A DNA stretch of 45,168 nucleotides, taken from the UHGV virus genome UHGV-0041136; one strand, written 5' to 3'. The stretch is from a virus. The translations under genes and the position numbers were made by a program. Below, in pieces: positions 4,980-41,879 of the stretch; position 1 is the stretch's first letter, and the number at the start of each line of letters is the position of its first letter. Below the pieces are notes generated by a model. It was given only the letters and a program-made list of their open reading frames with translations, was not told the DNA's origin and ran no database searches.

Positions 4980-5117
4980 CCACCCCCATCATTACTTCAC
5001 AGTTATCACCGTCGCACGCCGAAGTGCTGCGACTTGTTTCATAGGCGTCAACCAGTTCACCTAAAGTAAATTCACAATAGCTGTTCACTCTGTCTCTCCT
5101 CTCGTTTGAGTAAATGA

Positions 5118-5146
5118 ATAGTAGCCTATTCTATCTTAGTGTGCAA
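5118..5146 (-). promoter_or_regulatory. conserved promoter element, minus strand (-35 TTGCAC, 17 bp, -10 TACTAT) with AATAG-N4-CTATT inverted repeat
   Basis: plus strand tgAATAGtagcCTATTctatcttagtGTGCAAg; the same core recurs at 6468, 30060, 39165 and 41829. Confidence 0.5.
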
Positions 5147-5221
5147 GTTAATTTTATTGGTGTTTGTATTGTTGCATCTCCTGCAATAGTCGCTCCGATT
5201 GTTGCGTTTGGTGAAATAGAA

Positions 5222-5260
5222 CAAAAATGAGAAAAATGATACGCTGCTGGGTAGCAGCGT
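5222..5260 (-). terminator. rho-independent terminator after the DUF551 pair
   Basis: ACGCTGCT-gggt-AGCAGCGT 8-bp stem; minus transcript then reads ATCATTTTTCTCATTTTTG. Confidence 0.55.
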
Positions 5261-5274
5261 AAGTCACAAAGCCA

Positions 5275-5288
5275 AATAGTAACCTATT
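5275..5288. promoter_or_regulatory. additional AATAG-N4-CTATT operator-like site
   Basis: AATAGtaacCTATT followed by TTGACC; between the DUF551 gene end and the terminator. Confidence 0.3.
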
Positions 5289-5306
5289 GACCTGTTACAC
5301 CACCTG

Positions 5307-5504
5307 TTACACCAGCGATGGCGGCTCTGGTAACGGCATCCAGTGGGTAACATCGTCACTACTGATATTCGAGTTACGCGGCGCCCAACAATCCCAGAAG
5401 CCATCGCAATCCCGCCACATCACCTCAACGTTACCCCCATCCGAAACCAGCACATCTTCAAATTCTTCCGGCATCCGTTCACTACACTCAATCCACTTAC
5501 CCAT
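5307..5504 (-). CDS. DUF551-like small protein, copy 1
   Basis: MGKWIECSERMPEE...VTHWMPLPEPPSLV; WMPLPEPP C-terminus as I recall for DUF551 phage proteins. Confidence 0.5.
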   Translation of the reverse strand: MGKWIECSERMPEEFEDVLVSDGGNVEVMWRDCDGFWDCWAPRNSNISSDDVTHWMPLPEPPSLV

Positions 5505-5514
5505 ATCTCACCCC

Positions 5515-5700
5515 TTATTCATCACACTTCAGAGACTCAGGTAACGGCATCCAGTGTGTTACGCCAACACACTTAACGTATCCATCACAAACAAAGTCAC
5601 CGATGTATCTTGCTATAAAGCCATACCCGGCGCGGGCATAAACAATTACGTCCTCACCCTCTTCCGGCATCCGTTCACTACACTCAATCCACTTACCCAT
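5515..5700 (-). CDS. DUF551-like small protein, copy 2 (tandem paralog)
   Basis: MGKWIECSERMPEEGEDV...VTHWMPLPESLKCDE; identical first 14 residues and shared C-terminal motif with 5307..5504. Confidence 0.5.
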   Translation of the reverse strand: MGKWIECSERMPEEGEDVIVYARAGYGFIARYIGDFVCDGYVKCVGVTHWMPLPESLKCDE

Positions 5701-5850
5701 AAATCACCTCTGATTCGCGATAAACAACACACCAGCTTTCCACGCCCGCCACGCGAGACGCGTCTTAACGTTCAGGTACTCTTTCTTCGAACCCTTGTTA
5801 ACCGGCAGACCCTCGACGACGGCCCACCGTTCAAATGCTTCTCTCATAAC

Positions 5851-6042
5851 TTAGTCCTCCAGAACTTCGCATTCAGAATTACGGACGAACAAATACTCAA
5901 GGCAATGGTTTACGACAAACCCATACTCATTACGAATCACCACGTCAAATTCATCCCCAACGGAGACACCAAAGTACGCAAGGCTAACGTCCAGGTATTC
6001 CTCTGAGCATGTCTGCTCGATGTCAGTTATACGAATTCTCAT
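5851..6042 (-). CDS. hypothetical protein
   Basis: ATG 6042 overlaps upstream TAA; track start 6051 is TTG. Confidence 0.35.
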   Translation of the reverse strand: MRIRITDIEQTCSEEYLDVSLAYFGVSVGDEFDVVIRNEYGFVVNHCLEYLFVRNSECEVLED

Positions 6043-6242
6043 TAACGGCAACCTCCCTCAGAGTCGTCGGCACGAGCATCATGATTCGATGCCGTTCGTA
6101 TGGAGCGCAAACTGTGAAGCATTCTTCCCGCGGAACTGGTGATAATTGTTATCCCATCTAAAATAACAACCTCGTACCGGTTTACTTGAAAATACACTTT
6201 CTCCAGTTCATGATGTTTCAGTTCTTCAAATAATTCTTCCAT
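6042..6242 (-). CDS. hypothetical protein
   Basis: ATG 6242 shares one base with the upstream TGA. Confidence 0.35.
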   Translation of the reverse strand: MEELFEELKHHELEKVYFQVNRYEVVILDGITIITSSAGRMLHSLRSIRTASNHDARADDSEGGCR

Positions 6243-6433
6243 CACTTCGCCCCTTTGAATTTAAAATTGTTGCCGATGAGCTCTAAATTATCGCGTAAGG
6301 CGAACCCAGTTTTCTTTCTTACCAGACCCCATACGTCAACCAGATTATCCTGGTCATACTCGTTCTCGTCCTGCAACACTAATACATATTGCCCTCCACG
6401 TTTAGTTTTAGCCAATTGACCCTTCTTAAACAT
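6242..6433 (-). CDS. hypothetical protein, first gene of the leftward operon
   Basis: ATG 6433 with AGGAG SD about 25 nt downstream of the promoter at 6468..6496. Confidence 0.45.
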   Translation of the reverse strand: MFKKGQLAKTKRGGQYVLVLQDENEYDQDNLVDVWGLVRKKTGFALRDNLELIGNNFKFKGAK

Positions 6434-6467
6434 AACCCTCACTCCTCTGTCTCGTTCCGATAAGTGA

Positions 6468-6496
6468 ATAGTATCCTATTATGTTGGGGTGTGCAA
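6468..6496 (-). promoter_or_regulatory. conserved promoter element, minus strand (-35 TTGCAC, 17 bp, -10 TACTAT) with AATAG-N4-CTATT
   Basis: plus strand gtgAATAGtatcCTATTatgttggggtGTGCAAg; near-identical to the element at 30060..30089 in reverse orientation. Confidence 0.5.
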
Positions 6497-6568
6497 GAGA
6501 ATAGTTACGTTGCCGTTGTGATTCTTCAGGGAGGGTTGTGCCTTTATTCTTATTACTTGGTAACTAAA

Positions 6569-6589
6569 GGGCAGGCCTTAAGCCTGCCC
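6569..6589. other. perfect 8-bp stem-loop GGGCAGGC-cttaa-GCCTGCCC in the divergent control region
   Basis: read directly; lies between divergent promoters so not obviously a terminator. Confidence 0.35.
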
Positions 6590-6866
6590 GGTAATCGTTA
6601 CATTTTTACGGTTGCGAATCTACGGCACTTTAAGAAAATCAGATACTTAAGAGATATGCTGCCGATGAGAATAGAGCTTGCCCAGAGCAACCGGAGATAC
6701 TAAGGAAGGAAAGTTACGATAATTCTCGTGTTCAGTAAGCCTGTGTTTAACCCTTTGCTTGACGCACGTGTTAAACATTCTTACAAGGTGAACAGGAATC
6801 AAAGTAACTAAGATATAGAAGCACCTTAAACGAAGATTTTCATAATGTCAATAGGTGCAATTATGT

Positions 6867-6895
6867 TTGATTTCCCATTATTCGCAATGTATACT
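6867..6895 (+). promoter_or_regulatory. candidate rightward promoter for the replication operon (-35 TTGATT, 17 bp, -10 TATACT)
   Basis: AT-rich region about 30 nt upstream of the HTH gene ATG 6928. Confidence 0.35.
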
Positions 6896-6927
6896 CGATT
6901 TTGTTAACTGATAATGAGGGTTTGAGA

Positions 6928-7098
6928 ATGACACAGAATGAGGTAGCTGAGCGTATCGGGGTTACTCGTCGAACGCTGAATAACTGGTTAAAGAGTGGGA
7001 AGTTCCCGGATTGTTGTATCCGCATTATGGGCCGCCGTCAGCCAGGTACTTTTGACCGGGAGAAAGTGGAAGCGTGGATTAAGGAGAATGTAAAATGA
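6928..7098 (+). CDS. small HTH DNA-binding protein (AlpA / excisionase-like HTH)
   Basis: ATG 6928 with GAGGG SD (track begins at TTG 6901); NEVAERIGVTRRTLNNWLKSGKFP...REKVEAWIKE resembles AlpA/Xis-type HTH. Confidence 0.55.
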   Translation: MTQNEVAERIGVTRRTLNNWLKSGKFPDCCIRIMGRRQPGTFDREKVEAWIKENVK

Positions 7099-7328
7099 CC
7101 GAGTTCCAGTCACGTGTATTTACGGCGGTCGTTTCGTTAACACGTAAAAAAGGGTCGTGCAGCGTTATCGACTTGCGCCGTAGTTATTTTAAGTACTATA
7201 GTTCAGCCATTATTGAAGGGTCGTTAAAGGTACTGGTTAAATCCGGTGTCGTGAAAAACGTTGGCGGGAAATATAGCGCCGTTGCAGAAGTTCGCGGAAT
7301 GGCAGCCACTTTAGAAGACCTGGAATAA
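7095..7328 (+). CDS. hypothetical protein (C-terminus ...ATLEDLE)
   Basis: ATG 7095 with AGGAG SD, ATGA overlap. Confidence 0.5.
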   Translation: MTEFQSRVFTAVVSLTRKKGSCSVIDLRRSYFKYYSSAIIEGSLKVLVKSGVVKNVGGKYSAVAEVRGMAATLEDLE

Positions 7329-7386
7329 AAGAAAGCCCCGACGCGGTGAACGCCGAGGCCAAATTACTTGCTGAAGGAAATACAAC

Positions 7387-9627
7387 ATGTCCGATGTAAT
7401 TTTATCCTACTCGTGGTCACGTCGCAACGCGCGGGCGGAGAAAAAGGATATAAACGTCAGAACCACGCATACGGCAACACTGGATGACCTGAAAGAGTTA
7501 ATCCAGCCACTGGATGCCGTTCGTGGCGGAATTAACCCTAAGACTGCGCCTGGCTATATTACTGCCGCGTGCGACTCGACGCACAGCACCGTAAAAGACC
7601 CGGAAACCGGTGACTTTAAGCAAGCGCGCAAAGGCTTCTTTTATCGCTGCGACGCGTCTGTAAGCAAATCGTCGCTGGCGTATCTTGACTTCGACAGCGC
7701 AACGCCGGAAGAGTATCAGGAAGCGGTGCGCCTGGTTAAGCGCAGCCGCCATGCTATGTGCCTATACACTACAGCGTCACATACCGATGAGTCGCCGCGC
7801 TTTCGCGTCGTCATGCCGCTGGCCCGCCCGGTCGAAGGCGGCAACATCATCCGTGTTCGTCATGGATTGCTCGAGCACTTCTTCAAAGGCATGGGCGCTG
7901 ACCGCAGCGGGTTCACTCTGTCGCAGCCGATGTACCTGCCGCCGGTCGGCTCACAGGTTATCTGGTCGCGTCGCAACGACCTGATCGACCCTGACGAGTT
8001 ACTGGAAGGCGTACCGGATTACGAGGTGAGCAGCGCATCTGACTATCAGATACCAGAAGAACTGCGCACTGCATTTACTGATGCGTTCGAAGCGCTGGCG
8101 TTTGAGTACGGAGGTATCATGACGCCCCGCGGCCTTAAGATGCCAGCTACGCCGGAACACGCAGAGAACTACAGCGACCCGACACCTCGCCCGGACGACT
8201 TCCTGCTGTGTTTCCCGCGTGAAGGGTACGAAGCGCCGAACGTAACCATGATTCACGACACCGACATTACAGCAACCGAAGGCATGTCGCCGAAAGAGGT
8301 GTGGAAATACGCGTGCGATGCGACCGGGCTGCCGTTCAGTGAAGTCGCCGAGGCTATCGGATGGGGTGCGCGTGAGTCAGTTTCATGCAGCCTCGACGAC
8401 CTGGAAGACGAGGATGACTCCGAGGAGGACGAGCTACCGGAACCGGTAAAGGCTGATTTCGTCGTTGAGGGGTACATGCCGTCGGATTGCATCTGGGATA
8501 TCGTCGGGGAATCTGGCACGTACAAATCGTTCTATACGCTGGGGATGATGTACCTTAGCGCCTCCGGATACCGGTTTGCGGGCGCTGACACACAGCGTTG
8601 CCACCACTTCTATATCGACGGTGAGGGTGGCGCAGCCACACGTACACGTATTGACGCGCTCGCGGCTAAATACGGCGCAGAGGGTAAAGATTATGTACAC
8701 GTCATCGACATGGGTGAAGTCGGCAAACTTAAAAGCCTGATTAAGTTAATGCGTGAAACTGCGGGCGATGAACCTATTGGCATGGTCGCGTTCGACACCC
8801 TCAACCAGACGCTGGCCCTGACGATTGATAAGTTTGACGAGAACAGTTCATCAACGGCAATCGGCATGGGTAAAGTTATCGCCATCCTGAAAGAAGTACG
8901 CGACGCGACTAAAGCCGCGGTAGGTGTTGTCCATCATACGCCGAAGGGGGGAAAGAAAGCCCGTGGCAGCGGGGCACTGTATGCAGGTGTCGACGTGGAA
9001 CTGACAATCGAACGTGCAACCGACCGTCAAATAAATGTATACCACTCTAAATTTAAGCACGGGCCTCAACAGAAAACTGTCGGTATGGTTCTGGAGTCCG
9101 TACAGTTCCGTGAAGCCCCGCCGCCGAAAGAATACCGTGCTGTTGAGTTCCTGGGTAGCACCGAGGAATATGGCACAATCGTAAACCTCGACCTGCCTGA
9201 GCCTCACAAGGCGCTTGTGCTGATGCCGTGGGGCTTCGAGCCGTTCAAGATTGACGAGGAGAAAGAGCGGGAAGAAGGGCTGACGAAAGAAGGTAAAGAA
9301 AACGTAAAGAATGCTGTAAAACGCGGGAAGGATGAAGGGCGTAAGGAATCAATACTCGCCGCGCTGGAAGACCTGCAACAGTCTAACGACACCGGACGAG
9401 GTTTTACCCAACGGCAGATAGTAGCGAACTCGGGCGACCACGCCATCACCAACCACCATCTCGAGAAGATGCTGAAAGACGGGGAGTTGATGCTCGGGTG
9501 CGATGTTAACGGTGAAGTTATGCCAGGCACATACCGGATACCGGAAAAGATGGGTGACAGATTAAGACCGAAGACAATATACGAACCAAATGAAATGCTA
9601 ACAGTGACAGAGGAGGATTTGGAGTAG
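7387..9627 (+). CDS. primase/helicase-type replication protein (N-terminal primase-polymerase-like, C-terminal RecA-like ATPase)
   Basis: YLDFDSATPEEY (DxD) in N-terminal half; acidic linker; Walker A GESGTYKS and VVHHTPKGG motif in C-terminal half; ends VTEEDLE. Confidence 0.7.
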   Translation: MSDVILSYSWSRRNARAEKKDINVRTTHTATLDDLKELIQPLDAVRGGINPKTAPGYITAACDSTHSTVKDPETGDFKQARKGFFYRCDASVSKSSLAYLDFDSATPEEYQEAVRLVKRSRHAMCLYTTASHTDESPRFRVVMPLARPVEGGNIIRVRHGLLEHFFKGMGADRSGFTLSQPMYLPPVGSQVIWSRRNDLIDPDELLEGVPDYEVSSASDYQIPEELRTAFTDAFEALAFEYGGIMTPRGLKMPATPEHAENYSDPTPRPDDFLLCFPREGYEAPNVTMIHDTDITATEGMSPKEVWKYACDATGLPFSEVAEAIGWGARESVSCSLDDLEDEDDSEEDELPEPVKADFVVEGYMPSDCIWDIVGESGTYKSFYTLGMMYLSASGYRFAGADTQRCHHFYIDGEGGAATRTRIDALAAKYGAEGKDYVHVIDMGEVGKLKSLIKLMRETAGDEPIGMVAFDTLNQTLALTIDKFDENSSSTAIGMGKVIAILKEVRDATKAAVGVVHHTPKGGKKARGSGALYAGVDVELTIERATDRQINVYHSKFKHGPQQKTVGMVLESVQFREAPPPKEYRAVEFLGSTEEYGTIVNLDLPEPHKALVLMPWGFEPFKIDEEKEREEGLTKEGKENVKNAVKRGKDEGRKESILAALEDLQQSNDTGRGFTQRQIVANSGDHAITNHHLEKMLKDGELMLGCDVNGEVMPGTYRIPEKMGDRLRPKTIYEPNEMLTVTEEDLE

Positions 9628-9636
9628 GTAAAAAGA

Positions 9637-9655
9637 AAGGGGCGTTAAGCCCCTT
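9637..9655. terminator. bidirectional hairpin terminator between convergent genes
   Basis: AAGGGGC-gttaa-GCCCCTT; A-run upstream on plus strand gives a T-run after the hairpin on the minus transcript. Confidence 0.5.
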
Positions 9656-9860
9656 CACCGAACGCCAGCCACTTGGCGTCTACTTGCAGCACTTCCGCCA
9701 GTTTAAACAGCGTCGCCGGGCGGACGTCCTGAGTTACCCCGAGCGCAAGCTGGTTAATTGCGCCCTGGGAAACGCCAGCCAGAACAGCCAGACGGCGCTG
9801 GGAGATGCCGAGTTCTTTACGGCGTTGTTCTACACGGATGCCTAGTTCAGATGGTTGCAT
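9645..9860 (-). CDS. XRE-family HTH regulator (Cro/CI-type)
   Basis: ATG 9860 with AAGGAG SD; RRKELGISQRRLAVLAGVSQGAINQLALG is a classic HTH_3 segment; only minus-strand gene inside the plus-strand module. Confidence 0.75.
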   Translation of the reverse strand: MQPSELGIRVEQRRKELGISQRRLAVLAGVSQGAINQLALGVTQDVRPATLFKLAEVLQVDAKWLAFGEGA

Positions 9861-9888
9861 GTCAATTACTCCTTAGTTAGTTGATATG

Positions 9889-9905
9889 TGAATAGTACCA
9901 TATTA
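9889..9905 (-). promoter_or_regulatory. operator copy (AATAGtaccATATT) overlapping the extended -10 (TGgTACTAT) of the regulator promoter
   Basis: minus strand reads ...aatatggTACTATtcacatatc...AAGGAG...ATG. Confidence 0.45.
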
Positions 9906-9924
9906 ATTATTTTAGAAAAGCCCA

Positions 9925-9953
9925 TTGACATAATGAATAGTTAGCTATTATAG
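9925..9953 (+). promoter_or_regulatory. class II promoter: -35 TTGACA, operator AATAGttagCTATT overlapping -10 (TATTAT/ATTATA)
   Basis: cccaTTGACAtaatgAATAGttagCTATTatag, 35 nt upstream of ATG 9986; same arrangement at 12629..12656. Confidence 0.5.
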
Positions 9954-9985
9954 TTAGCCCATACCAAACGAGAGGAGAGAAACAA

Positions 9986-10480
9986 ATGTTAGACCAATTC
10001 TTAAAATTACTGGAACGTTTCGTAGTTGCACATGAACTGATTGCCGCGAACAGTGCGAAACAAGTTGTCGTTGCTGAAGTAGATGGGTTAACCGCAGAGA
10101 CTAAAGAACAGGTGAAAGAAAAAGTAGTTAAAGCCGAAACAAAAGAAATCCCGGTGGAAGGCGAAGGCATCGTTGACACTAAACAGGCGGAAGAAGAGAA
10201 GCCTAAACGCAAGCCGCGTAAAGCTAAAGTAGAGGAGCCGACGCCAGAACCGGAAGAAGAGAAGGAAGAAGTTGATTACCAGTCTCTGCGTGACCAGATT
10301 CAGGCTATCGACGATGCGATTAACGAAGGTCCAAGCGATGCCGCGTGCGATGATTCTGATGAACTGCTGGAAGAGTTCACCGGTAAGAAAATGAAGATTG
10401 CTGCGATTAAAGACGAAGACCTGGCTGAATACCTGGAACGCCTCACAGCAATCAAGAACAAGTATTTCGAAGAAGAATAA
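9986..10480 (+). CDS. acidic/lysine-rich protein of unknown function
   Basis: ATG 9986 with GAGGAGAG SD; long E/K/P-rich segment, ends KYFEEE. Confidence 0.55.
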   Translation: MLDQFLKLLERFVVAHELIAANSAKQVVVAEVDGLTAETKEQVKEKVVKAETKEIPVEGEGIVDTKQAEEEKPKRKPRKAKVEEPTPEPEEEKEEVDYQSLRDQIQAIDDAINEGPSDAACDDSDELLEEFTGKKMKIAAIKDEDLAEYLERLTAIKNKYFEEE

Positions 10481-12454: not shown

Positions 12455-12624
12455 TGGTTTATATTCTCACGCGGTATCACCGCCGATATTCTATTCAAGA
12501 ACTTGATATTGTTTCTGTTCACGCTAAACGCGCCGACGCCGACAAAATTGCAGAAGAGAAGAACTCAAAGCATGAGGCGGTGCAGCCTTATATTTATAAG
12601 GTAGTTCCGAAGAAACTTAAATAA
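12451..12624 (+). CDS. hypothetical small protein
   Basis: ATG 12451 with AGGAGGA SD, ATGA overlap (track starts at GTG 12421). Confidence 0.45.
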   Translation: MMVYILTRYHRRYSIQELDIVSVHAKRADADKIAEEKNSKHEAVQPYIYKVVPKKLK

Positions 12625-12628
12625 AGTG

Positions 12629-12656
12629 TTGACACCTGAATAGTTAGCTATTATAG
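12629..12656 (+). promoter_or_regulatory. class II promoter: -35 TTGACA, operator AATAGttagCTATT, -10 TATTAT
   Basis: gtgTTGACAcctgAATAGttagCTATTatagtt, same arrangement as 9925..9953. Confidence 0.5.
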
Positions 12657-12725
12657 TTTTAATCACTGGCCGGGCAGCTTCCCGGAGTAAACTTTGAAAT
12701 ATAAACTGAAAAGCGAGAAATCACG

Positions 12726-13355
12726 ATGGGTATTAAACTGAATCTGCGTAAAGTAAACACTGCATGGGTTAACGTATTCGAACGCGCTGCTGATTCTGAG
12801 GACAAGAAAACCGGTAAACTGATTAAGGGCAAATATCAGGTTACGGTTCTTATGCAGCCTGACCATCCTCAAATTGATGCGCTTTATGATACCGCGTTGG
12901 AAGTTGTAACAGAGGCGATCGGGGCAGCTGCTGCTGAGAAATGGATGAAGGCGAACTACGGCGAAGACCACCATGCTGATAAATGCTGCGTCCGTGACCT
13001 GGCAATGCGCGACAATCCGATTGAAGATTTTGAAGAAGGTCTGTATTTCCGCGCTACTAACAACCGACAACCTGTGATTATGACATCGGCTAAAGGCGAA
13101 AAACAAACCGAGCCTGATTTCAACATCGACGGGAAGGAAATAGAAGGCGAGCAGGTATATAGCGGATGTGTCGCAAACGTATCTGTAGAGTTATGGTGGC
13201 ACAAAGATTGGAAAAACCTGTGCGCTACCATCCTCGGCATCAAGTATATGGGTGAAGGTAAACGCTTCGGCGGCTCCAGTGTAGTAGCGAGCACTGACGA
13301 CCTGGAAGACGACGAAGAAGATGCTGCACCACGCCGCGAACGTCGTCGCCGCTAA
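12726..13355 (+). CDS. ssDNA-binding-like protein (DUF2815-type)
   Basis: position between Cas4-like nuclease and DNA polymerase as in PolA-type phage modules; acidic C-terminal region DDLEDDEEDA then RRERRRR. Confidence 0.5.
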   Translation: MGIKLNLRKVNTAWVNVFERAADSEDKKTGKLIKGKYQVTVLMQPDHPQIDALYDTALEVVTEAIGAAAAEKWMKANYGEDHHADKCCVRDLAMRDNPIEDFEEGLYFRATNNRQPVIMTSAKGEKQTEPDFNIDGKEIEGEQVYSGCVANVSVELWWHKDWKNLCATILGIKYMGEGKRFGGSSVVASTDDLEDDEEDAAPRRERRRR

Positions 13356-13374: not shown

Positions 13375-13396
13375 AGGCCCTTTATTGGGCCTTTTT
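13375..13396 (+). terminator. hairpin AGGCCC-tttatt-GGGCCT followed by TTTT
   Basis: directly after stop at 13355. Confidence 0.5.
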
Positions 13397-16124: not shown

Positions 16125-16405
16125 CCCCAGAAGGCAAGATTCAGAAATACGCAAAAGAGCGATTCGAGGCCATTGGCGGCCTCGTTCGTAAACTTTCCTA
16201 CGAAGGACGTTCCGGCGCTCCTGACCTGCTGGTAATTCTCCCCGGCGGCATCGTCTGGTTCGTTGAGGTTAAGAAAGATGAAAACACGAAGCCCGACCCC
16301 CACCAGTTACGCGAGCACGAGCGGATGCGTAAAAGAGGTGCAAATGTTTTTGTCGTCGGTTCGTTTAAACAGGTTGACGACCTAATAGCGAACTATTATA
16401 GTTAG
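16121..16405 (+). CDS. VRR-NUC domain nuclease
   Basis: ATG 16121; GAPDLLVILPGGIVWFVEVKK...RGANVFVV matches the VRR-NUC pattern. Confidence 0.65.
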   Translation: MTPEGKIQKYAKERFEAIGGLVRKLSYEGRSGAPDLLVILPGGIVWFVEVKKDENTKPDPHQLREHERMRKRGANVFVVGSFKQVDDLIANYYS

Positions 16406-16435: not shown

Positions 16436-16627
16436 ATGAAACACGAATACGACCGCAAACCAGCACGTGACATCGTACCGGGCGACATGATTTTCAACGT
16501 TAAAACCCGACAGCCGGTTGCCGTTGATACGGTGTACGTCGAGTCGAACGGTAAACTGGTTATCGAAGACGTAACTGGAAACGTTACGGCGTTCGGGCGT
16601 AAAGAGTTAGTTCTGGTGCTGAAATGA
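16436..16627 (+). CDS. hypothetical protein
   Basis: ATG 16436 with AAGGA SD. Confidence 0.5.
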   Translation: MKHEYDRKPARDIVPGDMIFNVKTRQPVAVDTVYVESNGKLVIEDVTGNVTAFGRKELVLVLK

Positions 16628-17307
16628 TTGTCTGGTCATTGTTTGACGGTTCGGGCCTCATGGCCCAACCGTGGGCGGAAGCGGGCCATACGTGCTATTG
16701 TTTCAACTACGACGGTGCTGACCACGGCGACTACGCACGATTGGGTGCAAAAGTTGAACACGATAACATTCACTATATAAACGCGTGGATTGATAATAAG
16801 TTCGACTTCGAGGTTGCACCGGATATTATTTTCGCGTTCCCTCCGTGCACAGATTTAGCCGTTAGTGGCGCTGCGCATTTCGAAACGAAGCGGAGAAGGA
16901 ACCCAACGTTTCAGGTGGAGGCCGTGATTACATGCAAAGTGGCTGCGCGTCTGGCTAAAAAGTACAACGTACCCTATATGATTGAGAACCCTGTTAGCGT
17001 TCTCTCGTCTTTGTGGCGTAAGCCTGACTACGCGTTCAATCCATACGAATACGGCGGCTATTTACCCGAAGACGACACGCACCCAATGTTCCCCGAATAC
17101 ATAAAACCGCGGGACGCGTACCCTAAGAAGACATGTATTTGGGCGGGTAACGGTTTTGTGATGCCTGTTAAATCATGTGTCGCCGTGGTTGGCGGTTACT
17201 CTGACCAACACAATAAATTAGGCGGTAAATCGGTGAGGACAAAAACAATCCGCAGCCTTACCCCGCGGGGTTTCGCAAAAGCAGTTTATGAGGCCAATCA
17301 TGTCTAA
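16624..17307 (+). CDS. DNA (cytosine-5)-methyltransferase-like protein, unusually short (227 aa)
   Basis: motif I-like LFDGSG, motif IV-like FPPCTDLAVSG (Pro-Cys), motif VI-like MIENPV; no room for a canonical target-recognition domain. Confidence 0.5.
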   Translation: MIVWSLFDGSGLMAQPWAEAGHTCYCFNYDGADHGDYARLGAKVEHDNIHYINAWIDNKFDFEVAPDIIFAFPPCTDLAVSGAAHFETKRRRNPTFQVEAVITCKVAARLAKKYNVPYMIENPVSVLSSLWRKPDYAFNPYEYGGYLPEDDTHPMFPEYIKPRDAYPKKTCIWAGNGFVMPVKSCVAVVGGYSDQHNKLGGKSVRTKTIRSLTPRGFAKAVYEANHV

Positions 17308-19388: not shown

Positions 19389-19757
19389 ATGACTGAGAAA
19401 GAATTACGCAAAGCCGCGCTCTTATATTTGGAAATGGCTGCGCTATCCTGCGCCAGGGGTGCGTACTACGATACGCTAAGTGGTTACAGAACATACATTA
19501 TAGGAGCCACACTAAGAGACGGAGGGGCGCGTACAGATAATCACGCTGATAATATGTTCCAGGCTGAAGAGAATGCCAGAAAAGCATTACAATCCTTAAT
19601 TGGAGAAAGAACGATATCAGTATTTGAAGAACATCATGGCGCAATCAGGGTAACTATTTGGCATGGCGAAAAATTAATAGGGCATTATTCTATTGAACAA
19701 AAATCCGTAAATGTTTTTGACGGTGAACCGCTAACTGCGGAAGGCGAACAAAAATGA
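19389..19757 (+). CDS. hypothetical protein
   Basis: ATG 19389; lies in AT-rich accessory segment. Confidence 0.45.
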   Translation: MTEKELRKAALLYLEMAALSCARGAYYDTLSGYRTYIIGATLRDGGARTDNHADNMFQAEENARKALQSLIGERTISVFEEHHGAIRVTIWHGEKLIGHYSIEQKSVNVFDGEPLTAEGEQK

Positions 19758-26372: not shown

Positions 26373-26869
26373 TGCATCGGATCCCAAATTCGTGGAAACG
26401 TTGATTGTGCGGTTCCATAGGCTTTAAGCAAACAGCCCAGCCCATCACCATAACAGCCATACAAATCTGGCAGATTATTAATCAGGCACTGGTTCTCAAG
26501 GTCCTGGAACGGCGATTTCTCAGCGGTTGCCGTGAAAGTGATTGTCCAGTTAATGCCGTCTTCGGTGGACTCCGCGATGGTGGACGTGATGGTTACCTGA
26601 TAATCCTCGATACCCATGCCGAAGTCGTGCGCCATCCAGAAACTTGACGCACCACCATCGACTTTTTCGAGGAACGACAGAAACGCCTGCCGCCCCAGCG
26701 ACGATGTAATCAGGGTTACACTTATCGGGAACACGTCGTAATACGTGTCACGCCCCTGGCGCACCCCACCACCTGCTAAATCGACGCTCCAGACGTTGTT
26801 GCGTCTGGTCATTGAGTAGCCTTTTGACACCACCGGCTTAAGGCTACGTGGGAAGTATAAGTCAGTCAT
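26369..26869 (-). CDS. minor tail protein (gpM-like position)
   Basis: ATG 26869 overlaps tape-measure stop; synteny. Confidence 0.4.
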   Translation of the reverse strand: MTDLYFPRSLKPVVSKGYSMTRRNNVWSVDLAGGGVRQGRDTYYDVFPISVTLITSSLGRQAFLSFLEKVDGGASSFWMAHDFGMGIEDYQVTITSTIAESTEDGINWTITFTATAEKSPFQDLENQCLINNLPDLYGCYGDGLGCLLKAYGTAQSTFPRIWDPMQ

Positions 26870-30059: not shown

Positions 30060-30089
30060 TTGCACACCCCAATATAATAGGGTACTATT
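30060..30089 (+). promoter_or_regulatory. conserved promoter element, plus strand (-35 TTGCAC, 17 bp, -10 TACTAT) with AATAGggtaCTATT
   Basis: cTTGCACaccccaatatAATAGggTACTATTcac, 28 nt upstream of ATG 30117. Confidence 0.5.
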
Positions 30090-30116: not shown

Positions 30117-30443
30117 ATGCGTAAATTAGTATTAGCTCTGGGGTTTATGTCTTTTGCTACTTTTGGGTCCCCGTGCGAACAGGTATTTAGTGAATCTGTT
30201 CTTATGGCTTCTGGTGCGCTTGAGAAAGCCGACCCTACTATTGTAAAGGCATTTAAGGACTCTACAGTTCGCGAGTGTGAGGCCGCCGTAGATGTCGGTA
30301 AATCGGGCCTACCCCCGCAAGCCGTAACATACACGGTAGTACGTTCGGTAGAGCAAAACGGAGACGCGTTTTATAGCCTACTGACAGCCACCCGTCTGCA
30401 AATGGTGATGACTGGATGGGCGATAGGCGCGGAAAGTAAATAG
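30117..30443 (+). CDS. secreted small protein (signal peptide)
   Basis: MRKLVLALGFMSFATFGSP... cleavable signal-like N-terminus; first gene of cassette A. Confidence 0.55.
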   Translation: MRKLVLALGFMSFATFGSPCEQVFSESVLMASGALEKADPTIVKAFKDSTVRECEAAVDVGKSGLPPQAVTYTVVRSVEQNGDAFYSLLTATRLQMVMTGWAIGAESK

Positions 30444-30507
30444 TCGCCTTTATTTAAAGGAATCCACTGTGGTTAAATAGGACAAATCCTAAGCACGAGG
30501 AATAAGC

Positions 30508-31638
30508 ATGGCCCGGAAGAAAATAACCGACGAACAGTTGCAGGAAGAATTGAACGCCGGTATGAAGAATATCGACATCGCCCGTAAATACGGCATCTCA
30601 GACCGCGTAATTCGCATCCGTAAAGCGAAGCTGGCTAAGAAAGGCGTAGGCCACGGGCGCGACGTCAGCCACCTTGTGCCAGATGGCTACAAGATTAAAG
30701 GAACGTCGTCCCTGGTGGACGAGTTTGGCAACACTAAGTTGCAATGGGTTAAGACTGACACCGATGCTGAACGTCAGGTCGAGTTGATGAAAGCCGTAAT
30801 TGAAGGCATGAAGTCAGAGATTACCCCCGTTGCGCCTGTTAAAGCGACTCGAGCCAAACGTGACGATAAACTGCTCAATCTTTACACTGTATCTGATTTC
30901 CATCTCGGTATGCTGGCATGGGCCGACGAGAGCGGCGACGACTGGGACATGAAGATTGCGGAAGACCTGTTCTCTCGATGGTTCGACGCTGCGTTTCAGA
31001 AGGCACCAGACGCCGGGACAGGGGTTATTAACCTGCTGGGCGACCTTGCGCACTTCGATAGTCTGGACGCGGTTACCCCCGCAAGTGGTCACGTTCTTGA
31101 CGCCGATACCCGCTACCAGAAACTTGTCCGCTACATGATTCGCATGGTCCGTCGTGTTGTTGATATGGCCCTTGTTAAGCATAAAAATGTTCGCTTGCTT
31201 ATTGTGCAAGGTAACCACGACGAGAGTGGCATGATTTGGTTGGCTGAGATGTTCAGTACGCTATACGACAACGAGCCGCGTGTGTTTGTCGATACGTCGC
31301 CGGATGTTTACAAAATGGTGCAACACGGCAAAACGACGCTGTTCTTTACACACGGGCATAAATGCCGGTTTGAGGTGGTCGAACCCATTATGATAGCTAA
31401 GTTCAGAAAAGCATTTGGCGAAAGCGAGTACAGTTACGCACATGTCGGGCATCTCCACCACCAAAAGATTGTAGAAAGTAGGAATATGGTGGTGGAGCAG
31501 CATCGCACTCTCGCGGCGAAAGATGCATATGCTTCTCGCGGCGGGTGGATGTCTAAGAGGTCCGCTAATGTCATAACCTATAGTTCAGAGTTCGGGGAAG
31601 TAGGTAGGCTTTCAATCTCACCGGAGATGCTAAGATGA
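30508..31638 (+). CDS. HTH-domain protein fused to calcineurin-like metallophosphoesterase
   Basis: N-terminal NIDIARKYGISDRVIRIRKAKL (HTH-like); MPP motifs VSDFHLG (DxH), GDLAHFD (GDxxD), GNHDE, FTHGH, GHLHH in canonical order. Confidence 0.7.
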   Translation: MARKKITDEQLQEELNAGMKNIDIARKYGISDRVIRIRKAKLAKKGVGHGRDVSHLVPDGYKIKGTSSLVDEFGNTKLQWVKTDTDAERQVELMKAVIEGMKSEITPVAPVKATRAKRDDKLLNLYTVSDFHLGMLAWADESGDDWDMKIAEDLFSRWFDAAFQKAPDAGTGVINLLGDLAHFDSLDAVTPASGHVLDADTRYQKLVRYMIRMVRRVVDMALVKHKNVRLLIVQGNHDESGMIWLAEMFSTLYDNEPRVFVDTSPDVYKMVQHGKTTLFFTHGHKCRFEVVEPIMIAKFRKAFGESEYSYAHVGHLHHQKIVESRNMVVEQHRTLAAKDAYASRGGWMSKRSANVITYSSEFGEVGRLSISPEMLR

Positions 31639-31865
31639 CTTCAAAATACAACCGAACAATGACAAATATTCACGGCAGCACTATGACGGTAGACGTTTAT
31701 GATGTGCTGCGTGCCTTCGATATCCGCGACCCGGCGTTACAGCACGCATTGAAGAAACTATTGTGTATGGGCCTTCGCGGACACAAAGACACAGGAACCG
31801 ACTTAGCAGAAGCAATTGAAAGTTTGGAGAAGTTACGGGAGTATAGAAGCAATATTGATGAGTAA
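31635..31865 (+). CDS. hypothetical small protein translationally coupled to the phosphoesterase
   Basis: ATGA overlap at 31635..31638. Confidence 0.45.
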   Translation: MTSKYNRTMTNIHGSTMTVDVYDVLRAFDIRDPALQHALKKLLCMGLRGHKDTGTDLAEAIESLEKLREYRSNIDE

Positions 31866-31869
31866 GAAA

Positions 31870-31889
31870 AAGGCCCCGAAAGGGGCCTT
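31870..31889 (+). other. stem-loop AAGGCCCC-gaaa-GGGGCCTT (GNRA loop) without T tract
   Basis: between 31865 and HNH gene. Confidence 0.35.
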
Positions 31890-31908
31890 ATCGCGATAGG
31901 AGATAATT

Positions 31909-32397
31909 ATGGATTGGAATGAATTTTTCATATACGACTTAATTTCAGGAAGGATATTTAACAGAGTAACACGGTCCGGGAGGGCTAAGGCTGGAGAGGA
32001 GGCGGGTACTATACAGCGAGACGGATATAGAAGGATATTTTTCAGAGGCAAATGGCACGCGGCGCACCGTATAGCATGGGACTTAAACAATCCTAACGAT
32101 AAGCTAACGTCGTCAGATCAAATAGACCATCTAGACCATAACCGAATAAACAATAGACCGCTTAACTTAGCTAAAAAGTCCAATGCGGAAAACCATAAAA
32201 ATATGTCAAAACAGCGTAATAATAAATCAGGAGTAACTGGGGTTTACTGGAATGCAAAAGAAAGGTTGTGGTATGCACAGATATTCAACAATAACGTAAA
32301 AACGCATATAGGGTGCTTTAAGACGCTACTAGATGCAGTTGCCGCGAGGAGAGTTGCTGAAAGAGATTTGGGGTTCCACAATAACCACGGCAAATAG
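31909..32397 (+). CDS. HNH homing endonuclease with AP2-type DNA-binding domain
   Basis: HNH core GKWHAAHRIAW...IDHLDHNRINNRPLNL...NH; C-terminal GVTGVYWNAKERLWYAQIFNNNVKTHIGCFKTLLDA resembles AP2; AT-rich codon usage. Confidence 0.7.
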   Translation: MDWNEFFIYDLISGRIFNRVTRSGRAKAGEEAGTIQRDGYRRIFFRGKWHAAHRIAWDLNNPNDKLTSSDQIDHLDHNRINNRPLNLAKKSNAENHKNMSKQRNNKSGVTGVYWNAKERLWYAQIFNNNVKTHIGCFKTLLDAVAARRVAERDLGFHNNHGK

Positions 32398-32399
32398 TA

Positions 32400-32425
32400 A
32401 GGCCCCGTTATGGGGCCTTTTTCTT
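32400..32425. terminator. bidirectional terminator AGGCCCC-gttat-GGGGCCT + T-run
   Basis: ends cassette A on plus strand and follows the major tail gene stop on minus strand. Confidence 0.55.
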
Positions 32426-37564: not shown

Positions 37565-37566
37565 TA

Positions 37567-38268: not shown

Positions 38269-38350
38269 AGTCAGTATGTCCCCTGGACGTTGGAACCCGG
38301 GCCACCCGGATTTACATGTCAAGAATAAATTATTCCAACATGCAAGGCAA

Positions 38351-38846: not shown

Positions 38847-39096
38847 GTTTCTCCTTTCTCGATAAGTAAAGCCCCGCCATAAAGCGGGGCGCTAGTCCTT
38901 ATCATTTAAACATAGAAACGGCGTAATCTCAGTAAACCAGTTACTTTTTACACAAGCAATAGAGTATGGCCCTTCCGAACGCGTCAGCGTAACTACACTC
39001 AGGACTTACGTCCCGCTCCGTTACCTGCCCGCGCCGCGGTCGCTTGCGATATCTCACAAGCTCAGGTGGAGCTTATCATATTTTTAGTGAAAAGTC

Positions 39097-39112
39097 AACT
39101 ATTCGAATAGTT
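39097..39112. repeat. perfect 16-bp palindrome AACTATTCGAATAGTT
   Basis: read directly; contains the CTATT/AATAG half-sites in everted arrangement, about 55 bp upstream of the promoter at 39165. Confidence 0.45.
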
Positions 39113-39163
39113 TATTCCAACATTTACAATTGAGCGGAATAACTGGAATAGGTAAACAAATAG

Positions 39164-39215
39164 TTTGCAGACACCAATATAATAGGGTACTATTCAGTTA
39201 ACTTAAACAGGAGGT
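39164..39215 (+). repeat. 52-bp direct repeat, copy 1 (promoter + leader + SD of cassette B)
   Basis: identical by eye to 41828..41879. Confidence 0.6.
39165..39194 (+). promoter_or_regulatory. conserved promoter element (-35 TTGCAG, 17 bp, -10 TACTAT) with AATAGggtaCTATT
   Basis: TTGCAGacaccaatatAATAGggTACTATTcag then AGGAGG and ATG 39221. Confidence 0.5.
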
Positions 39216-39220
39216 AGTAT

Positions 39221-40033
39221 ATGCAACATGTGATCAGTTTTTCAGGCGGCAGGACATCAGCGTACACAACCCTTGAAGTGCTTAAACTTCACCCCGATGC
39301 TGAGGTCATCTATATGGACACCGGGGCGGAGCACCCCAAGACCTACGAGTTCATCCGCAATTTTGCTAAGCACTTTAATATTGCAGTGACGTGCCTCAGG
39401 GTTGTTCCTAACCCGGAGATGCGTAAGGCCAGCACCTATGAAGTCCTTAGCGTAGATGAAATAGGTCCTGACCTGGAGCCATGGCGCAGAATGCTGCGCA
39501 AGTACGGCCACCCATACGTCGGTGGCGCGTTCTGCACAGACCGGATGAAGACGGTGCCGTTCACCAAATACTGTGACGAGAAATACGGTAAAGGCAAATA
39601 CGACAGATGGCTTGGCATCCGCTGTGATGAACCTAAGCGCCTGGTAAACAGGAAAGAGGGGTTCCACTATCTTGCAGACATCAGCGACTTCGAAAAACAG
39701 GACATTATTGACTGGTGGGCAAACCAGGAATTTGACCTTGGTATAGAGGAGCACTTGGGTAACTGTGTTTTTTGTATTAAAAAGAGCCTACAAAAAGTAG
39801 CACTGGCCGCTAAGGATGAACCACAGTTGGCTGAACAATTTTGGGAAATGATTCAGGAAGAAGACATAAAGCGGGATAAGGTTATGTACCGGTCCAACAG
39901 AAGCCTCGGCGAGGTTATCGCGCTGTTCCGGGATGAGGGTAGGGGTGAGCTTGCGTCTCGTATGCGGTCAATGCGGCAGTACGACACAGGGTCATGTAGC
40001 GAAAGTTGTGAGGCGTTTGGGGGTGGCGAATGA
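39221..40033 (+). CDS. PAPS-reductase-like PP-loop ATP pyrophosphatase family protein
   Basis: PP-loop ISFSGGRTS at N-terminus, YMDTGAEHPKTYEF, GAFCTDRMKTVPF; Cys-rich C-terminus GNCVFC...GSCSESC. Confidence 0.65.
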   Translation: MQHVISFSGGRTSAYTTLEVLKLHPDAEVIYMDTGAEHPKTYEFIRNFAKHFNIAVTCLRVVPNPEMRKASTYEVLSVDEIGPDLEPWRRMLRKYGHPYVGGAFCTDRMKTVPFTKYCDEKYGKGKYDRWLGIRCDEPKRLVNRKEGFHYLADISDFEKQDIIDWWANQEFDLGIEEHLGNCVFCIKKSLQKVALAAKDEPQLAEQFWEMIQEEDIKRDKVMYRSNRSLGEVIALFRDEGRGELASRMRSMRQYDTGSCSESCEAFGGGE

Positions 40034-40251
40034 TTACCGAAAAGCACGACAATGGCTCCATTTCTATTGATACCAATGATGGAAGGCATTTCTTTGCCCA
40101 CTTCATTAATGGCTCGTACAACTTGATAGAGGTTGTATCTGGCGGTTGTGTGGGAATAGGCAGAATTAAAGACGAGGAAAACATTAATCGCATAATACTG
40201 AGATGGGTCGAGCTTAACAAAGAGGTTCCACTCGCAGAGCCACTTAAATAA
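40030..40251 (+). CDS. hypothetical small protein coupled to the PAPS-reductase-like gene
   Basis: ATGA overlap. Confidence 0.45.
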   Translation: MITEKHDNGSISIDTNDGRHFFAHFINGSYNLIEVVSGGCVGIGRIKDEENINRIILRWVELNKEVPLAEPLK

Positions 40252-40255
40252 AACT

Positions 40256-40280
40256 AAGGCCCCACTATGGGGCCTTTTAT
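40256..40280. terminator. bidirectional terminator AAGGCCCC-actat-GGGGCCTT + TTTT
   Basis: A-run on one side, T-run on the other; between convergent gene ends. Confidence 0.55.
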
Positions 40281-40741
40281 CATTCTGGCTTAGTAACCTT
40301 CGCCGCCTTGCTTACCGCCTCTACACCATCGGTATCGGTAACTTTAACGAAGTATTCGCCGACAGCATTAACCGTCAGAGACAAAGCCTCTTCAGGTGCG
40401 TTGACAACTTCCTTTCCGTCTTTGTACCAGGTCAGAGCATATGGCGCTTTCCCCGCTTTAACTTCGACAGTGATAGTTGCGCTGCCGTCGGTCAGTTCAA
40501 CGTCCTGCGGTTGCACAGAGAAGTACACGTCACCAGCGTCCGCCAGATACGGAATCTCGTAAAGCATGCCCGCCGCGGGTAGCGCAATACCGGTTTTATC
40601 CGCAAACGGCATATCGTCTACCGGTGTACCTAGTACACTTTCATCTTCAATAAACACCACGTTCTCGCCGGAGCCAGATACGCGGGCGTACTGGACTACA
40701 CGACGTGATGGCACATCAGTTACTTTGAAAAAGCCCATCAT
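40280..40741 (-). CDS. Ig-like domain protein
   Basis: ITVEVKAGKAPYALTWYKDGKEV...EYFVKVTDTDG matches the Ig-like pattern also seen at 36109..36453. Confidence 0.5.
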   Translation of the reverse strand: MMGFFKVTDVPSRRVVQYARVSGSGENVVFIEDESVLGTPVDDMPFADKTGIALPAAGMLYEIPYLADAGDVYFSVQPQDVELTDGSATITVEVKAGKAPYALTWYKDGKEVVNAPEEALSLTVNAVGEYFVKVTDTDGVEAVSKAAKVTKPE

Positions 40742-41784
40742 TAATCCCCTTTCAGATAATCAGCAACACGTTTATCGAGTTCCGCCATCTGCTTAAGCGT
40801 GAGCGGATTCCCGAAACCATCTACAGATATTACGCGAAACTCTTCCGGTGATATACCGCTGTTACGGAAAATCTTACCGCGAACAGGGCCGAGCGCTTCA
40901 TCCTGAAACCATGCGGGTTGTTGCTTAAGGAACTCGTAGTAAGTGGTGTCTGCGCTCACCTGAGTACCGCCATCCGCACCTTTAGCCGCTCGTTTCGCCC
41001 CTTTATCGAGGAAGTCGAACTCTGAACTGATTACTGGGGCCGTGGTACTTCGGCAATTCGGATGGGCGGGTGGCATTGGGCCTCTACCGATTTCCCACGT
41101 CATCCCGTCTCTGGCTCTGCAAATTGTACTAGTGCGGCTGTCCAGCGTTGACACCCACTCGTACTTCTCGATGATGTCGTCGTTCTGGCGATACGTCTCG
41201 TTACGTGCTTCGTTGGATATGTGGGACAGCGCGGTGCGGATTACCGTAGCTGCATTACGTTCAGTGATGTCCGCCAGCCCGCCGGCACCAACAACATTCT
41301 TAACAATCTGCCGTGTAGTCTGGCCTTGGACAAAGCCCATCTTAACGCCGGCTACCAGGCGCGATACTTCTGTTTCACCCCAGCCCGACATCAGCTTAGT
41401 GAAGTCAACCGGCTTATCACTTAGTGACAGAGGCTGAAACTCGGCAGCGGCCCACACTTGTTCCGCGGTGGGGGTAACGAATTCCGCGTTAACGTTGGCT
41501 GCCAGCGTTTTTACGTTCCACTCAGCCTCATACGCCGCCAGTTCCTTAAGGTCTTCTGTCAGCTTTGTTTGCCAGTCACCTGTAAGCCCTGTCAGTGCTT
41601 CTTCGAGGTCACGTAACAGTTTATTTAGCCGAGCAGTGCTTCGCCCGTCGTCGCCGAATAACAGCACCTGTCGTTTGATTTCGTCCCGCATTTCCTGAAT
41701 GAATGGTGCGAGGTCTTTCACTTCACCGGACGCGGTGCGTTGTAGCCATATCTGGTGACTGATTAAGGATGTAAGTAAGCTCAT
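40741..41784 (-). CDS. head morphogenesis protein (Mu F / SPP1 gp7-like minor head protein)
   Basis: ATG 41784 with GGAGGG SD (track extends to 41841 across the opposing promoter); motif STLDSRTSTICRARDGMTW...PPAHPNCRSTT. Confidence 0.6.
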   Translation of the reverse strand: MSLLTSLISHQIWLQRTASGEVKDLAPFIQEMRDEIKRQVLLFGDDGRSTARLNKLLRDLEEALTGLTGDWQTKLTEDLKELAAYEAEWNVKTLAANVNAEFVTPTAEQVWAAAEFQPLSLSDKPVDFTKLMSGWGETEVSRLVAGVKMGFVQGQTTRQIVKNVVGAGGLADITERNAATVIRTALSHISNEARNETYRQNDDIIEKYEWVSTLDSRTSTICRARDGMTWEIGRGPMPPAHPNCRSTTAPVISSEFDFLDKGAKRAAKGADGGTQVSADTTYYEFLKQQPAWFQDEALGPVRGKIFRNSGISPEEFRVISVDGFGNPLTLKQMAELDKRVADYLKGD

Positions 41785-41827
41785 ATGCCCTCCTGTGGTA
41801 TCGCCAGTGTAACGCATAAAAATAATA

Positions 41828-41879
41828 TTTGCAGACACCAATATAATAGGGTACTATTCAGTTAACTTAAACAGGAGGT
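41828..41879 (+). repeat. 52-bp direct repeat, copy 2 (promoter + leader + SD of cassette C)
   Basis: identical by eye to 39164..39215. Confidence 0.6.
41829..41858 (+). promoter_or_regulatory. conserved promoter element (-35 TTGCAG, 17 bp, -10 TACTAT) with AATAGggtaCTATT
   Basis: same sequence as 39165..39194; ATG 41885. Confidence 0.5.

Follow-up and report, generated by a model that had tools for sequence, protein, structure and literature searches.

The operators of phage 434 are 14 bp long and have the form ACAAG-N4-CTTGT, two 5-bp half-sites with 4 bp between them, and in phage P1 (the C1 operators) and mycobacteriophage L5 (the gp71 sites) one repressor acts at many scattered sites on many transcription units. 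Here we describe a repeat of the 434 geometry, AATAG-N4-CTATT, in the viral genome UHGV-0041136, the whole 45,168-bp stretch of which is called the window below and to which all coordinates refer. The window is a near-complete genome of a lytic, Kagunavirus-like E. coli siphophage of the Guernseyvirinae, about 90% identical to the Escherichia/Klebsiella phages phiWAO78-1, SZH-1 and NTEC3. As judged from the sequences, the repeat is probably the operator of a 434-Cro-like helix-turn-helix (HTH) protein of the HTH_3 family, 71 amino acids long, that the phage itself encodes at 9645-9860. Guernseyvirinae rank among the most frequently isolated phages for biocontrol of E. coli and Salmonella, and to our knowledge their transcriptional programme is essentially unstudied. 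They are also being taken up as small chassis for synthetic biology.

The repeat as such has been seen before. What is new is its reading as an operator together with the comparative support, and the mechanism proposed below is a standard one of the Cro type, so far undescribed for these phages. The genome paper of Kagunavirus fBC-Eco01 gives the same element as a PHIRE consensus, tgAATAGTa-ccTATTat-T, with seven hits, a similar copy number, and assigns it to a phage RNA polymerase (PMC9825357), and this paper was the only match in a literature search for the motif string. Seven PHIRE promoters are also listed for VB_EcoS-Golestan, where the accessible part of the text gives only their count (PMC7203180). 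Neither dyad symmetry nor a link to an HTH protein is noted in these two papers, nor are lysogeny genes reported there, and the annotation of the close relative phiWAO78-1 has no gene for CI, an S24-peptidase or an integrase.

AATAG-N4-CTATT came first in enrichment when all palindromes of the type 5-Nx-5 were counted without prior assumption, in the window as well as in phiWAO78-1, where eight copies are present at orthologous places. The window has nine exact matches (5117, 5275, 6467, 9936, 12639, 16384, 30076, 39181 and 41845) whereas dinucleotide-preserving shuffles give 0.05 on average and never more than 1, so that its frequency is well above expectation, as the original prediction required. 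Its fuller consensus is (T/G)AATAG-N4-CTATT(A/C), and the 14 bp consist of two inverted 5-bp half-sites and a 4-bp gap; the candidate operator DNA for the 71-residue protein reads AATAGGGTACTATT. A symmetrised position weight matrix (PWM) was built from the eight promoter copies, and the scan of the whole window that had been suggested as a check was run with it. Two further sites scored above the maximum of 100 shuffles (18.2), at 9891 (18.9) and 19676 (18.5), and the copies at 2513 (13.8), 5275 (13.8) and 39090 (15.4) fell within the chance range. In total nine promoters carry a copy, eight of them an exact one and one a conserved imperfect one, and the ninth exact copy, 5275, is at no promoter. 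All eight promoter positions that had been given were correct, but a ninth promoter, at 16384-16397 (TTGACG-N17-TATAGT), had been missed.

The promoters with an exact copy fall into two classes. Class 1, TTGCAC/TTGCAG-N17-TACTAT, is found at 5117(-), 6467(-), 30076(+), 39181(+) and 41845(+), and class 2, TTGACA/TTGACG-N17/18-TATAGT, at 9936, 12639 and 16384. The sites and the proposed regulator gene are the following.

5117..5130, minus strand: class-1 copy in a leftward early promoter (TTGCAC 5141-5146, N17, TACTAT 5118-5123), serving a 39-residue open reading frame (ORF) from 5088 and the genes leftward of it.
6467..6480, minus strand: class-1 copy in a leftward early promoter (TTGCAC 6491-6496, TACTAT 6468-6473); the downstream gene starts at 6433.
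9645..9860, minus strand: gene for the 71-residue 434-Cro-like HTH_3 protein, the proposed operator-binding repressor.
9891..9904, minus strand: imperfect copy AATAT-GGTA-CTATT, one mismatch, PWM 18.9, in the promoter of the HTH_3 gene.
9936..9949, plus strand: class-2 copy (TTGACA 9925-9930, N18, TATAGT 9949-9954) before the gene at 9986-10480 and the recombination genes, divergent from the HTH_3 gene.
12639..12652, plus strand: class-2 copy (TTGACA 12629-12634, N17, TATAGT 12652-12657) upstream of the genes for an Enc34-type single-stranded-DNA-binding protein and DNA polymerase.
16384..16397, plus strand: class-2 copy (TTGACG 16374-16379, N17, TATAGT 16397-16402) upstream of 16436-16627, 16624-17307 and the helicase gene.
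30076..30089, plus strand: class-1 copy over the -10 (TTGCAC 30060-30065, N17, TACTAT 30083-30088), promoter of cassette 1; an orthologous site is present in phiWAO78-1.
39181..39194, plus strand: class-1 copy over the -10 (TTGCAG 39165-39170, N17, TACTAT 39188-39193), promoter of cassette 2.
41845..41858, plus strand: class-1 copy over the -10 (TTGCAG 41829-41834, N17, TACTAT 41852-41857), promoter of cassette 3.

Each of the nine promoter copies falls within about -25 to -6 of a predicted sigma-70-type -35/-10 pair, with a start codon 26-73 nt past each site and a recognisable Shine-Dalgarno sequence at all but 12639. In class 1 the right half-site includes TACTAT, with the dyad centre at about -12.5, and the hexamers are only moderate sigma-70 matches (3/6 and 4/6). 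No other sequence in bases 1-20000 matches sigma-70 as well as the three class-2 promoters, where the dyad is contained in the spacer, merely adjoins the -10 and has its centre at about -18.5 (both centres assume a start 7 nt after the -10). The original prediction had the first class right; for the TTGACA class, TATAGT at a spacing of 17 or 18 bp is a better -10 than the TATTAT then given, and the placement of the repeat over the -10 holds for class 1 only. The flanks (TGAATAGT…CTATTAT) are slightly asymmetric, and with respect to transcription their orientation is reversed in class 2; Jerseyvirus SE2 has a third register, TTGCAT-N7-AATAG-N4-CTATTAT. As judged from these predicted promoters, the dyad is a module that shifts independently of the -35/-10 hexamers, always within the polymerase footprint.

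One operator copy per promoter is the rule, except that 9891 and 9936 are 45 bp apart. The copy at 9891 had been listed at 9889..9905 like the others, and it is indeed significant (18.9 as compared to the shuffle maximum of 18.2), but it has one mismatch. The HTH_3 promoter has no good -35, and instead an extended -10, TGGTACTAT, is seen at 9892-9900 on the minus strand. It is created by the G-to-T mismatch in the operator, which supplies the T of the TG, and operator strength may thus have been traded for promoter strength at this site. In two contigs a variant spacer removes the TG.

To follow the repeat in relatives, 60 loci around homologs of the HTH_3 gene were retrieved from IMG/VR. AATAG-N4-CTATT ranked first, alone or tied, among the AT-rich palindromes of all Kagunavirus loci, with 2-6 copies per 20 kb or less, also in L042, where the HTH protein is only 78% identical to that of the window, and likewise in all Jerseyvirus loci, where it reads TAATAG-N4-CTATTA. 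Over about 37 Kagunavirus contigs the half-sites are conserved to at least 99%. At six promoter sites their conservation is 99-100% over 29-36 distinct Kagunavirus sequences (99% over 29 sequences at 5117, 100% over 34 at 6467), as compared to 84-98% for the spacers and 83-96% for the ±45-bp flanks. The spacer at 9936 is found in seven forms (on the plus strand CGAA, CTAA, CGAG, TGAA, CAAA and CTAG, and TTAG in the window), with both half-sites constant. The imperfect copy at 9891 is nearly invariant among distinct Kagunavirus sequences, with two spacer variants, one of them in the HTH_3-divergent L042, and Jerseyvirus has a different imperfect copy.

The Cornellviruses SP-031 and Shemara have no AATAG-N4-CTATT. 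Instead, dyads of the same geometry with different half-sites are found at the orthologous promoters, TTGCAA-N6-T-ATTAG-TGTC-GTAAT-AT at the early operon and ATTAG-TTTA-GTATT in the spacer ahead of TATAGT at the gp53 promoter. In the window an identical leader, TTAAACAGGAGG, follows cassette promoters 2 and 3 (39203-39214 and 41867-41878), and a related form of it, taaattaaacaggagga, is present at the Cornellvirus cassette promoter although the half-sites differ; the cassette promoters are therefore orthologous, and it is only the dyad that has changed. With the 16-fold relaxed consensus AWTAS-N4-STAWT, nine sites were found in the window (shuffle mean 0.54), all 18 half-sites being AATAG, and five in each Cornellvirus (shuffle mean about 0.5), where ATTAG, ATTAC and AATAC make up 19 of the 20 half-sites and AATAG only one. 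If the sites co-evolved with a dimeric, trans-acting protein, one would expect just such a symmetric, genome-wide change of the half-sites at orthologous promoters.

Two small HTH proteins are encoded in the window, one of the HTH_3 family at 9645-9860 (Pfam 1.2e-12) and one of the HTH_17 family, excisionase/MerR-like, at 6928-7098. The HTH_3 protein is present in all three genera, with identities of 93-100% in Kagunavirus, about 51% in Jerseyvirus and about 40% in Cornellvirus. A phmmer search against the PDB gave 434 Cro, also 71 residues long, as the closest match (E 4.9e-7, residues 6-68), followed by the 434 repressor and P22 C2. A single-sequence AlphaFold model with five helices (predicted local distance difference test, pLDDT, 84) had 434 Cro (2cro) as its best Foldseek match, with a template modelling (TM) score of 0.72-0.78, including the Cro-OR1 complex 3cro, and the predicted protein thus has the five-helix HTH_3 fold of the 434 Cro/CI N-terminal domain. 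The recognition helices read SQGAINQ in Kagunavirus, SQSLITH in Jerseyvirus and TQSAISH in Cornellvirus, and their first glutamine is invariant. It is most likely this protein, one of the two regulators named in the original prediction, that binds the repeat as an operator, and its relatives in temperate phages are encoded beside operators that match it in half-site and geometry.

These relatives were found on six contigs that represent five lineages outside the Guernseyvirinae (L057, L059, L061/L062, L063 and L065; L061 and L062 are about 95% identical upstream and were counted as one), 79 kb in total. Their HTH_3 homologs are 36-44% identical to the window protein, and each of the six is encoded divergently from a small HTH gene. 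Those of L057, L061 and L062 are 220-230 residues long and are extended at the C-terminus in the manner of CI, and the L061 homolog could be aligned with 434 CI over 99% of its length. AWTAS-N4-STAWT has 14 exact matches in the 79 kb, all of them in operator-like clusters. Half of these are found in the 120 bp that precede the homolog (Poisson P about 8e-13) and the other seven in a second promoter-like cluster, for example ATTAGTTTCCTATTGACA-N7-ATTAGCGTTCTAATAT. The homologs with a (S/T)Q(G/S)xIxx helix are found beside operators of the AWTAS type, and the Cro-like partner in L061/L062 has the exact Cornellvirus helix, GVTQSAISH, beside ATTAG-N4-CTAAT operators. As a control of specificity we used the lambdoid Klebsiella phage RCIP0098 (L005), the Cro of which is 45% identical to the window protein and has the helix KQQTIQQ, close to KQQSIQL of 434 Cro. 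Its cI-cro region has two ACAA-N6-TTGT operators (31026-31066 and 29663) and no AWTAS sites. RCIP0098 appears to have 434-like immunity.

If the repeat is the operator of the HTH_3 protein, a dimer would place one recognition helix on each 5-bp half-site, the centres of which are 9 bp apart. The Cro-like protein would be made from its own promoter, divergent from the one at 9936, and as dimers accumulate they would fill the strong operators and occlude the host RNA polymerase, since every copy is located about -25 to -6 of a sigma-70-type promoter. The targets would be the two leftward early promoters, the three in the replication/recombination arm and the three of the cassettes, and early, middle and cassette transcription would be turned down together as the protein builds up, much like the action of Cro at PL and PR but with neither a CI partner nor lysogeny. 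The idea that one dimeric HTH protein ties the early operons, replication genes and cassettes together through operators in their core promoters came from the original prediction, and it agrees well with half-sites that are fixed while the spacers vary, and with the two registers. The HTH_3 gene's own promoter, with its weaker copy, would be the least sensitive one, which would give autoregulation. The promoter at 6867-6895, which has no copy, and that at 2493-2521, with a one-mismatch copy over its -35, may escape the shut-off. The sequences show the enrichment of the motif, its placement in promoters, its conservation, the family of the protein and the association of operator and protein family in relatives; from these we infer the binding itself, the dimer stoichiometry, repression as the direction of the effect, and the timing.

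Some points weigh against this mechanism. The promoters and the transcription starts are predicted, and in the searched literature we found no binding, footprinting or expression data for any phage of the Guernseyvirinae, nor any transcriptomic or binding study. The class-1 promoters are alike beyond the repeat, for example in CCCCAATAT, so that some of their similarity is due to a shared origin of the promoter copies. Kagunavirus and Jerseyvirus both have AATAG, yet the Jerseyvirus helix is closer to the Cornellvirus helix. A simple co-variation of helix and motif inside the Guernseyvirinae is thus not clean, and the pattern can be seen only in the wider family. It should also be considered that repression of nearly all recognisable promoters would leave the transcription of the late genes unexplained.

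A different explanation would be that the repeat is part of a paralogous promoter family and is kept for its -10-like sequence, with no dedicated binder and a symmetry that is incidental. The overlap of the right half-site with TACTAT in class 1, the abutting of CTATTATAGT on the -10 in class 2, the additional flanking sequence common to the class-1 promoters and the detection of the motif as a promoter consensus by PHIRE-style repeat finders all fit with this. We find it unlikely all the same, because the half-site outside the -10 is equally invariant, the dyad is found in two or three registers and in both orientations relative to the -35/-10, both half-sites have changed symmetrically in Cornellvirus, and the same dyad recurs in operator clusters beside the CI/Cro homologs of unrelated phages. 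That the repeat is a protein-binding site for something other than the HTH_3 protein, namely the HTH_17 protein (6928-7098), a NinH-like protein (700-960) or a host transcription factor, seems quite unlikely. The HTH_17 protein, which had been named as a second possible regulator, is 89% identical between Kagunavirus and Jerseyvirus, which have the motif in common, and undetectable in Cornellvirus, where the motif differs. It was rejected as the binder, since the Kagunavirus contigs L026 and L018 lack it and nevertheless have six and three motif copies, and since the Cornellviruses have a dyad of the same geometry without it. The NinH-like protein is common to all three genera, but at 61-71% it is too conserved for a motif that changes, and its NinH match is below the Pfam threshold. 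For a host factor, the different half-sites of Jerseyvirus and Cornellvirus, which both infect Salmonella, make this improbable, and we know of no E. coli regulator with this consensus.

It is also conceivable that the HTH_3 protein does bind the repeat but acts as an activator or a dual regulator at some or all promoters, for example those of the TTGCAC/TACTAT class or that at 2493-2521, where a conserved imperfect copy covers the -35. The moderate sigma-70 matches of class 1 would agree with such a role, whereas the near-consensus class-2 promoters should need no activation, and centres at -12.5 and -18.5, inside the polymerase footprint, are an established position for repression in 434, lambda and P22; we therefore think activation decidedly improbable. 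The label that its seven hits received in fBC-Eco01, promoter of an RNA polymerase encoded by the phage, has next to no likelihood as a reading of the motif and is effectively refuted, as no gene for such a polymerase was found among the ORFs of the window or in the annotations of phiWAO78-1, SE2, SP-031 and Shemara, and the promoter copies sit in sigma-70-type -35/-10 pairs. Reading the repeat as an operator would thus correct the published label (PMC9825357). A symmetry due to bidirectional promoters can be seen at 30076 (minus-strand GTTACA-N17-TATATT) and at SE2 33752, but it is not general across the sites. An RNA hairpin was also rejected, since the repeat lies upstream of the predicted starts, and an AT-rich stem of 5 bp would be weak.

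The layout of the genome was read from the annotation of phiWAO78-1 compared with the ORF list of the window. The plus strand from about 6.9 to 20 kb is a replication/recombination arm, the minus strand from 6.4 kb down to 0.2 kb holds small early genes and lysis genes, and the minus strand from 45 to 20.5 kb holds the structural genes, broken by three cassettes on the plus strand. The cassettes and other features are as follows.

30117-32397, plus strand: cassette 1, with an unknown protein, a metallophosphoesterase and an HNH endonuclease.
39221-40251, plus strand: cassette 2, PAPS-reductase-like.
41885-42169, plus strand: cassette 3.
31870-31889, 32399-32419, 40256-40276 and 42174-42193, and also 13375-13392: near-identical, GC-rich bidirectional terminators (AAGGCCCC-N3/4-GGGGCCTT).
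5275..5288: orphan exact copy with no -35, beside a terminator, conservation 0.87.
2493..2521, minus strand: highly conserved sigma-70-like promoter TTGACT-N17-TATATT, with a one-mismatch copy at 2513-2526 overlapping the -35.
19676..19689: one-mismatch copy AATAGGGCATTATT, PWM 18.5, inside the strain-specific ORF 19389-19757, without promoter context.

A bidirectional terminator of the AAGGCCCC…GGGGCCTT type ends each opposite-strand cassette, which gives every cassette a layout of promoter, gene and terminator; the same family of hairpins is also present in Jerseyvirus and Cornellvirus genomes. Cassettes 1 and 2 carry accessory genes expressed antisense to the structural operon, and the cassette-2 protein (39221-40033) matches Pfam PAPS_reduct at 3.5e-9 and PHROG 33262 at 6e-104. 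Just upstream of the -35 of cassette 2, at 39136-39163, the repeated words GGAATAAC, GGAATAGG and AAATAG resemble half-sites, and comparable words, CTATTCCTATT and GGAATAATTTATTC, were seen at the orthologous promoter of SP-031 (L003, about 26560-26610); auxiliary half-sites are one possible role for them, an UP-like element another. In the replication arm, the phiWAO78-1 counterpart of 16624-17307 is annotated as a DNA cytosine methyltransferase, and Pfam gave no family for the ORF of the window.

The promoter TTGATT-N17-TATACT (6867-6895), which has no copy of the repeat, is a candidate for the operon of HTH_17 and the helicase-primase. In L026 the slot corresponding to 6928-7328 (12559-13144) holds an unrelated protein of 149 residues and one of 47 residues with two Cys-X2-Cys pairs, which looks like a zinc ribbon. 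Both L026 and L018 also lack the neighbour of HTH_17, a gene for 77 residues annotated as 'replication protein' in a relative. As HTH_17 and this neighbour are replaced in the two contigs, they look like a swappable module beside the helicase-primase gene.

The additional sites at 19676, 39090, 2513 and 5275 were set aside, each being either not conserved or in the chance range. The extra copy that had been noted at 5275..5288 is exact, but it has no -35, is about 87% conserved and is not present in phiWAO78-1, and it is probably not functional. Adjoining it, a perfect tandem direct repeat (ACCTGTTACACC x2, 5290-5313) shortly precedes the terminator at 5240-5261 in the direction of the minus strand and could be the binding site of another factor. 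The copy at 19676 has no orthologs in other Kagunavirus loci. The degenerate copy that had been claimed at 2493..2521 has a PWM score of 13.8, in the chance range, and the sequence at 2513-2526 would at most be a weak operator. The promoter itself is a candidate late-operon promoter; it comes right behind the terminator of the lysis genes, upstream of small genes leading into terminase, and two AATAG words but no complete dyad were observed in its region.

It is possible to take the operator reading further, although only tentatively and with a rather low probability. The obligately lytic subfamily might have a 'Cro-only' circuit, in which a repressor derived from an immunity region and without CI acts on essentially every early, middle and cassette promoter and gives a global early-to-late shut-off. 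If this were true, an already infected cell would silence a superinfecting relative with the same operator type, and AATAG (Kagunavirus and Jerseyvirus) and ATTAG/ATTAC (Cornellvirus) would represent immunity types among virulent phages. A switch of the Cro type that is retained in a lytic phage and dispersed over its genome is interesting but not unexpected. With one 71-residue repressor, one 14-bp operator and nine promoters the model can be tested directly, and it would also offer a small orthogonal set of promoter, operator and repressor parts with a natural specificity variant in Cornellvirus.

Among known systems, the closest is the 434 Cro/CI N-terminal domain, which is of the same family and size as the window protein and its closest PDB match by both sequence and fold. 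The OR and OL of 434 have the same 14-bp 5-N4-5 geometry and overlap sigma-70 promoters, and the invariant first glutamine of the helix and the adenine at operator position 1 are found here too. The half-site is ACAAG in 434 and AATAG in the window, however, and the second residue of the helix is Gln in 434 but Gly or Ser here. The 434 operators are tripartite at both OR and OL, whereas the window has single operators at nine dispersed promoters, and the CI partner and the lysis-lysogeny switch of 434 have no counterpart, as there is no CI, integrase or lysogeny module. The CI/Cro immunity regions of uncultivated temperate phages from IMG/VR (L057, L059, L061-L063 and L065) have homologous HTH_3 proteins with (S/T)Q(G/S)xIxx helices and A[AT]TAG-N4-CTA[AT]T operators, some of which overlap the -10 (TTGACA-N7-ATTAG-N4-CTAATAT). 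They differ in their divergent repressor pairs and in the clustering of the operators at two loci, as compared to a short protein alone and dispersed single operators in the window. With P1 C1 and L5 gp71, which are unrelated proteins that act at asymmetric sites in the maintenance of lysogeny, the likeness is one of function and not of membership. What is unusual in the window is thus the context, a lytic phage in which an operator of this type is placed singly over nine promoters without a CI partner.

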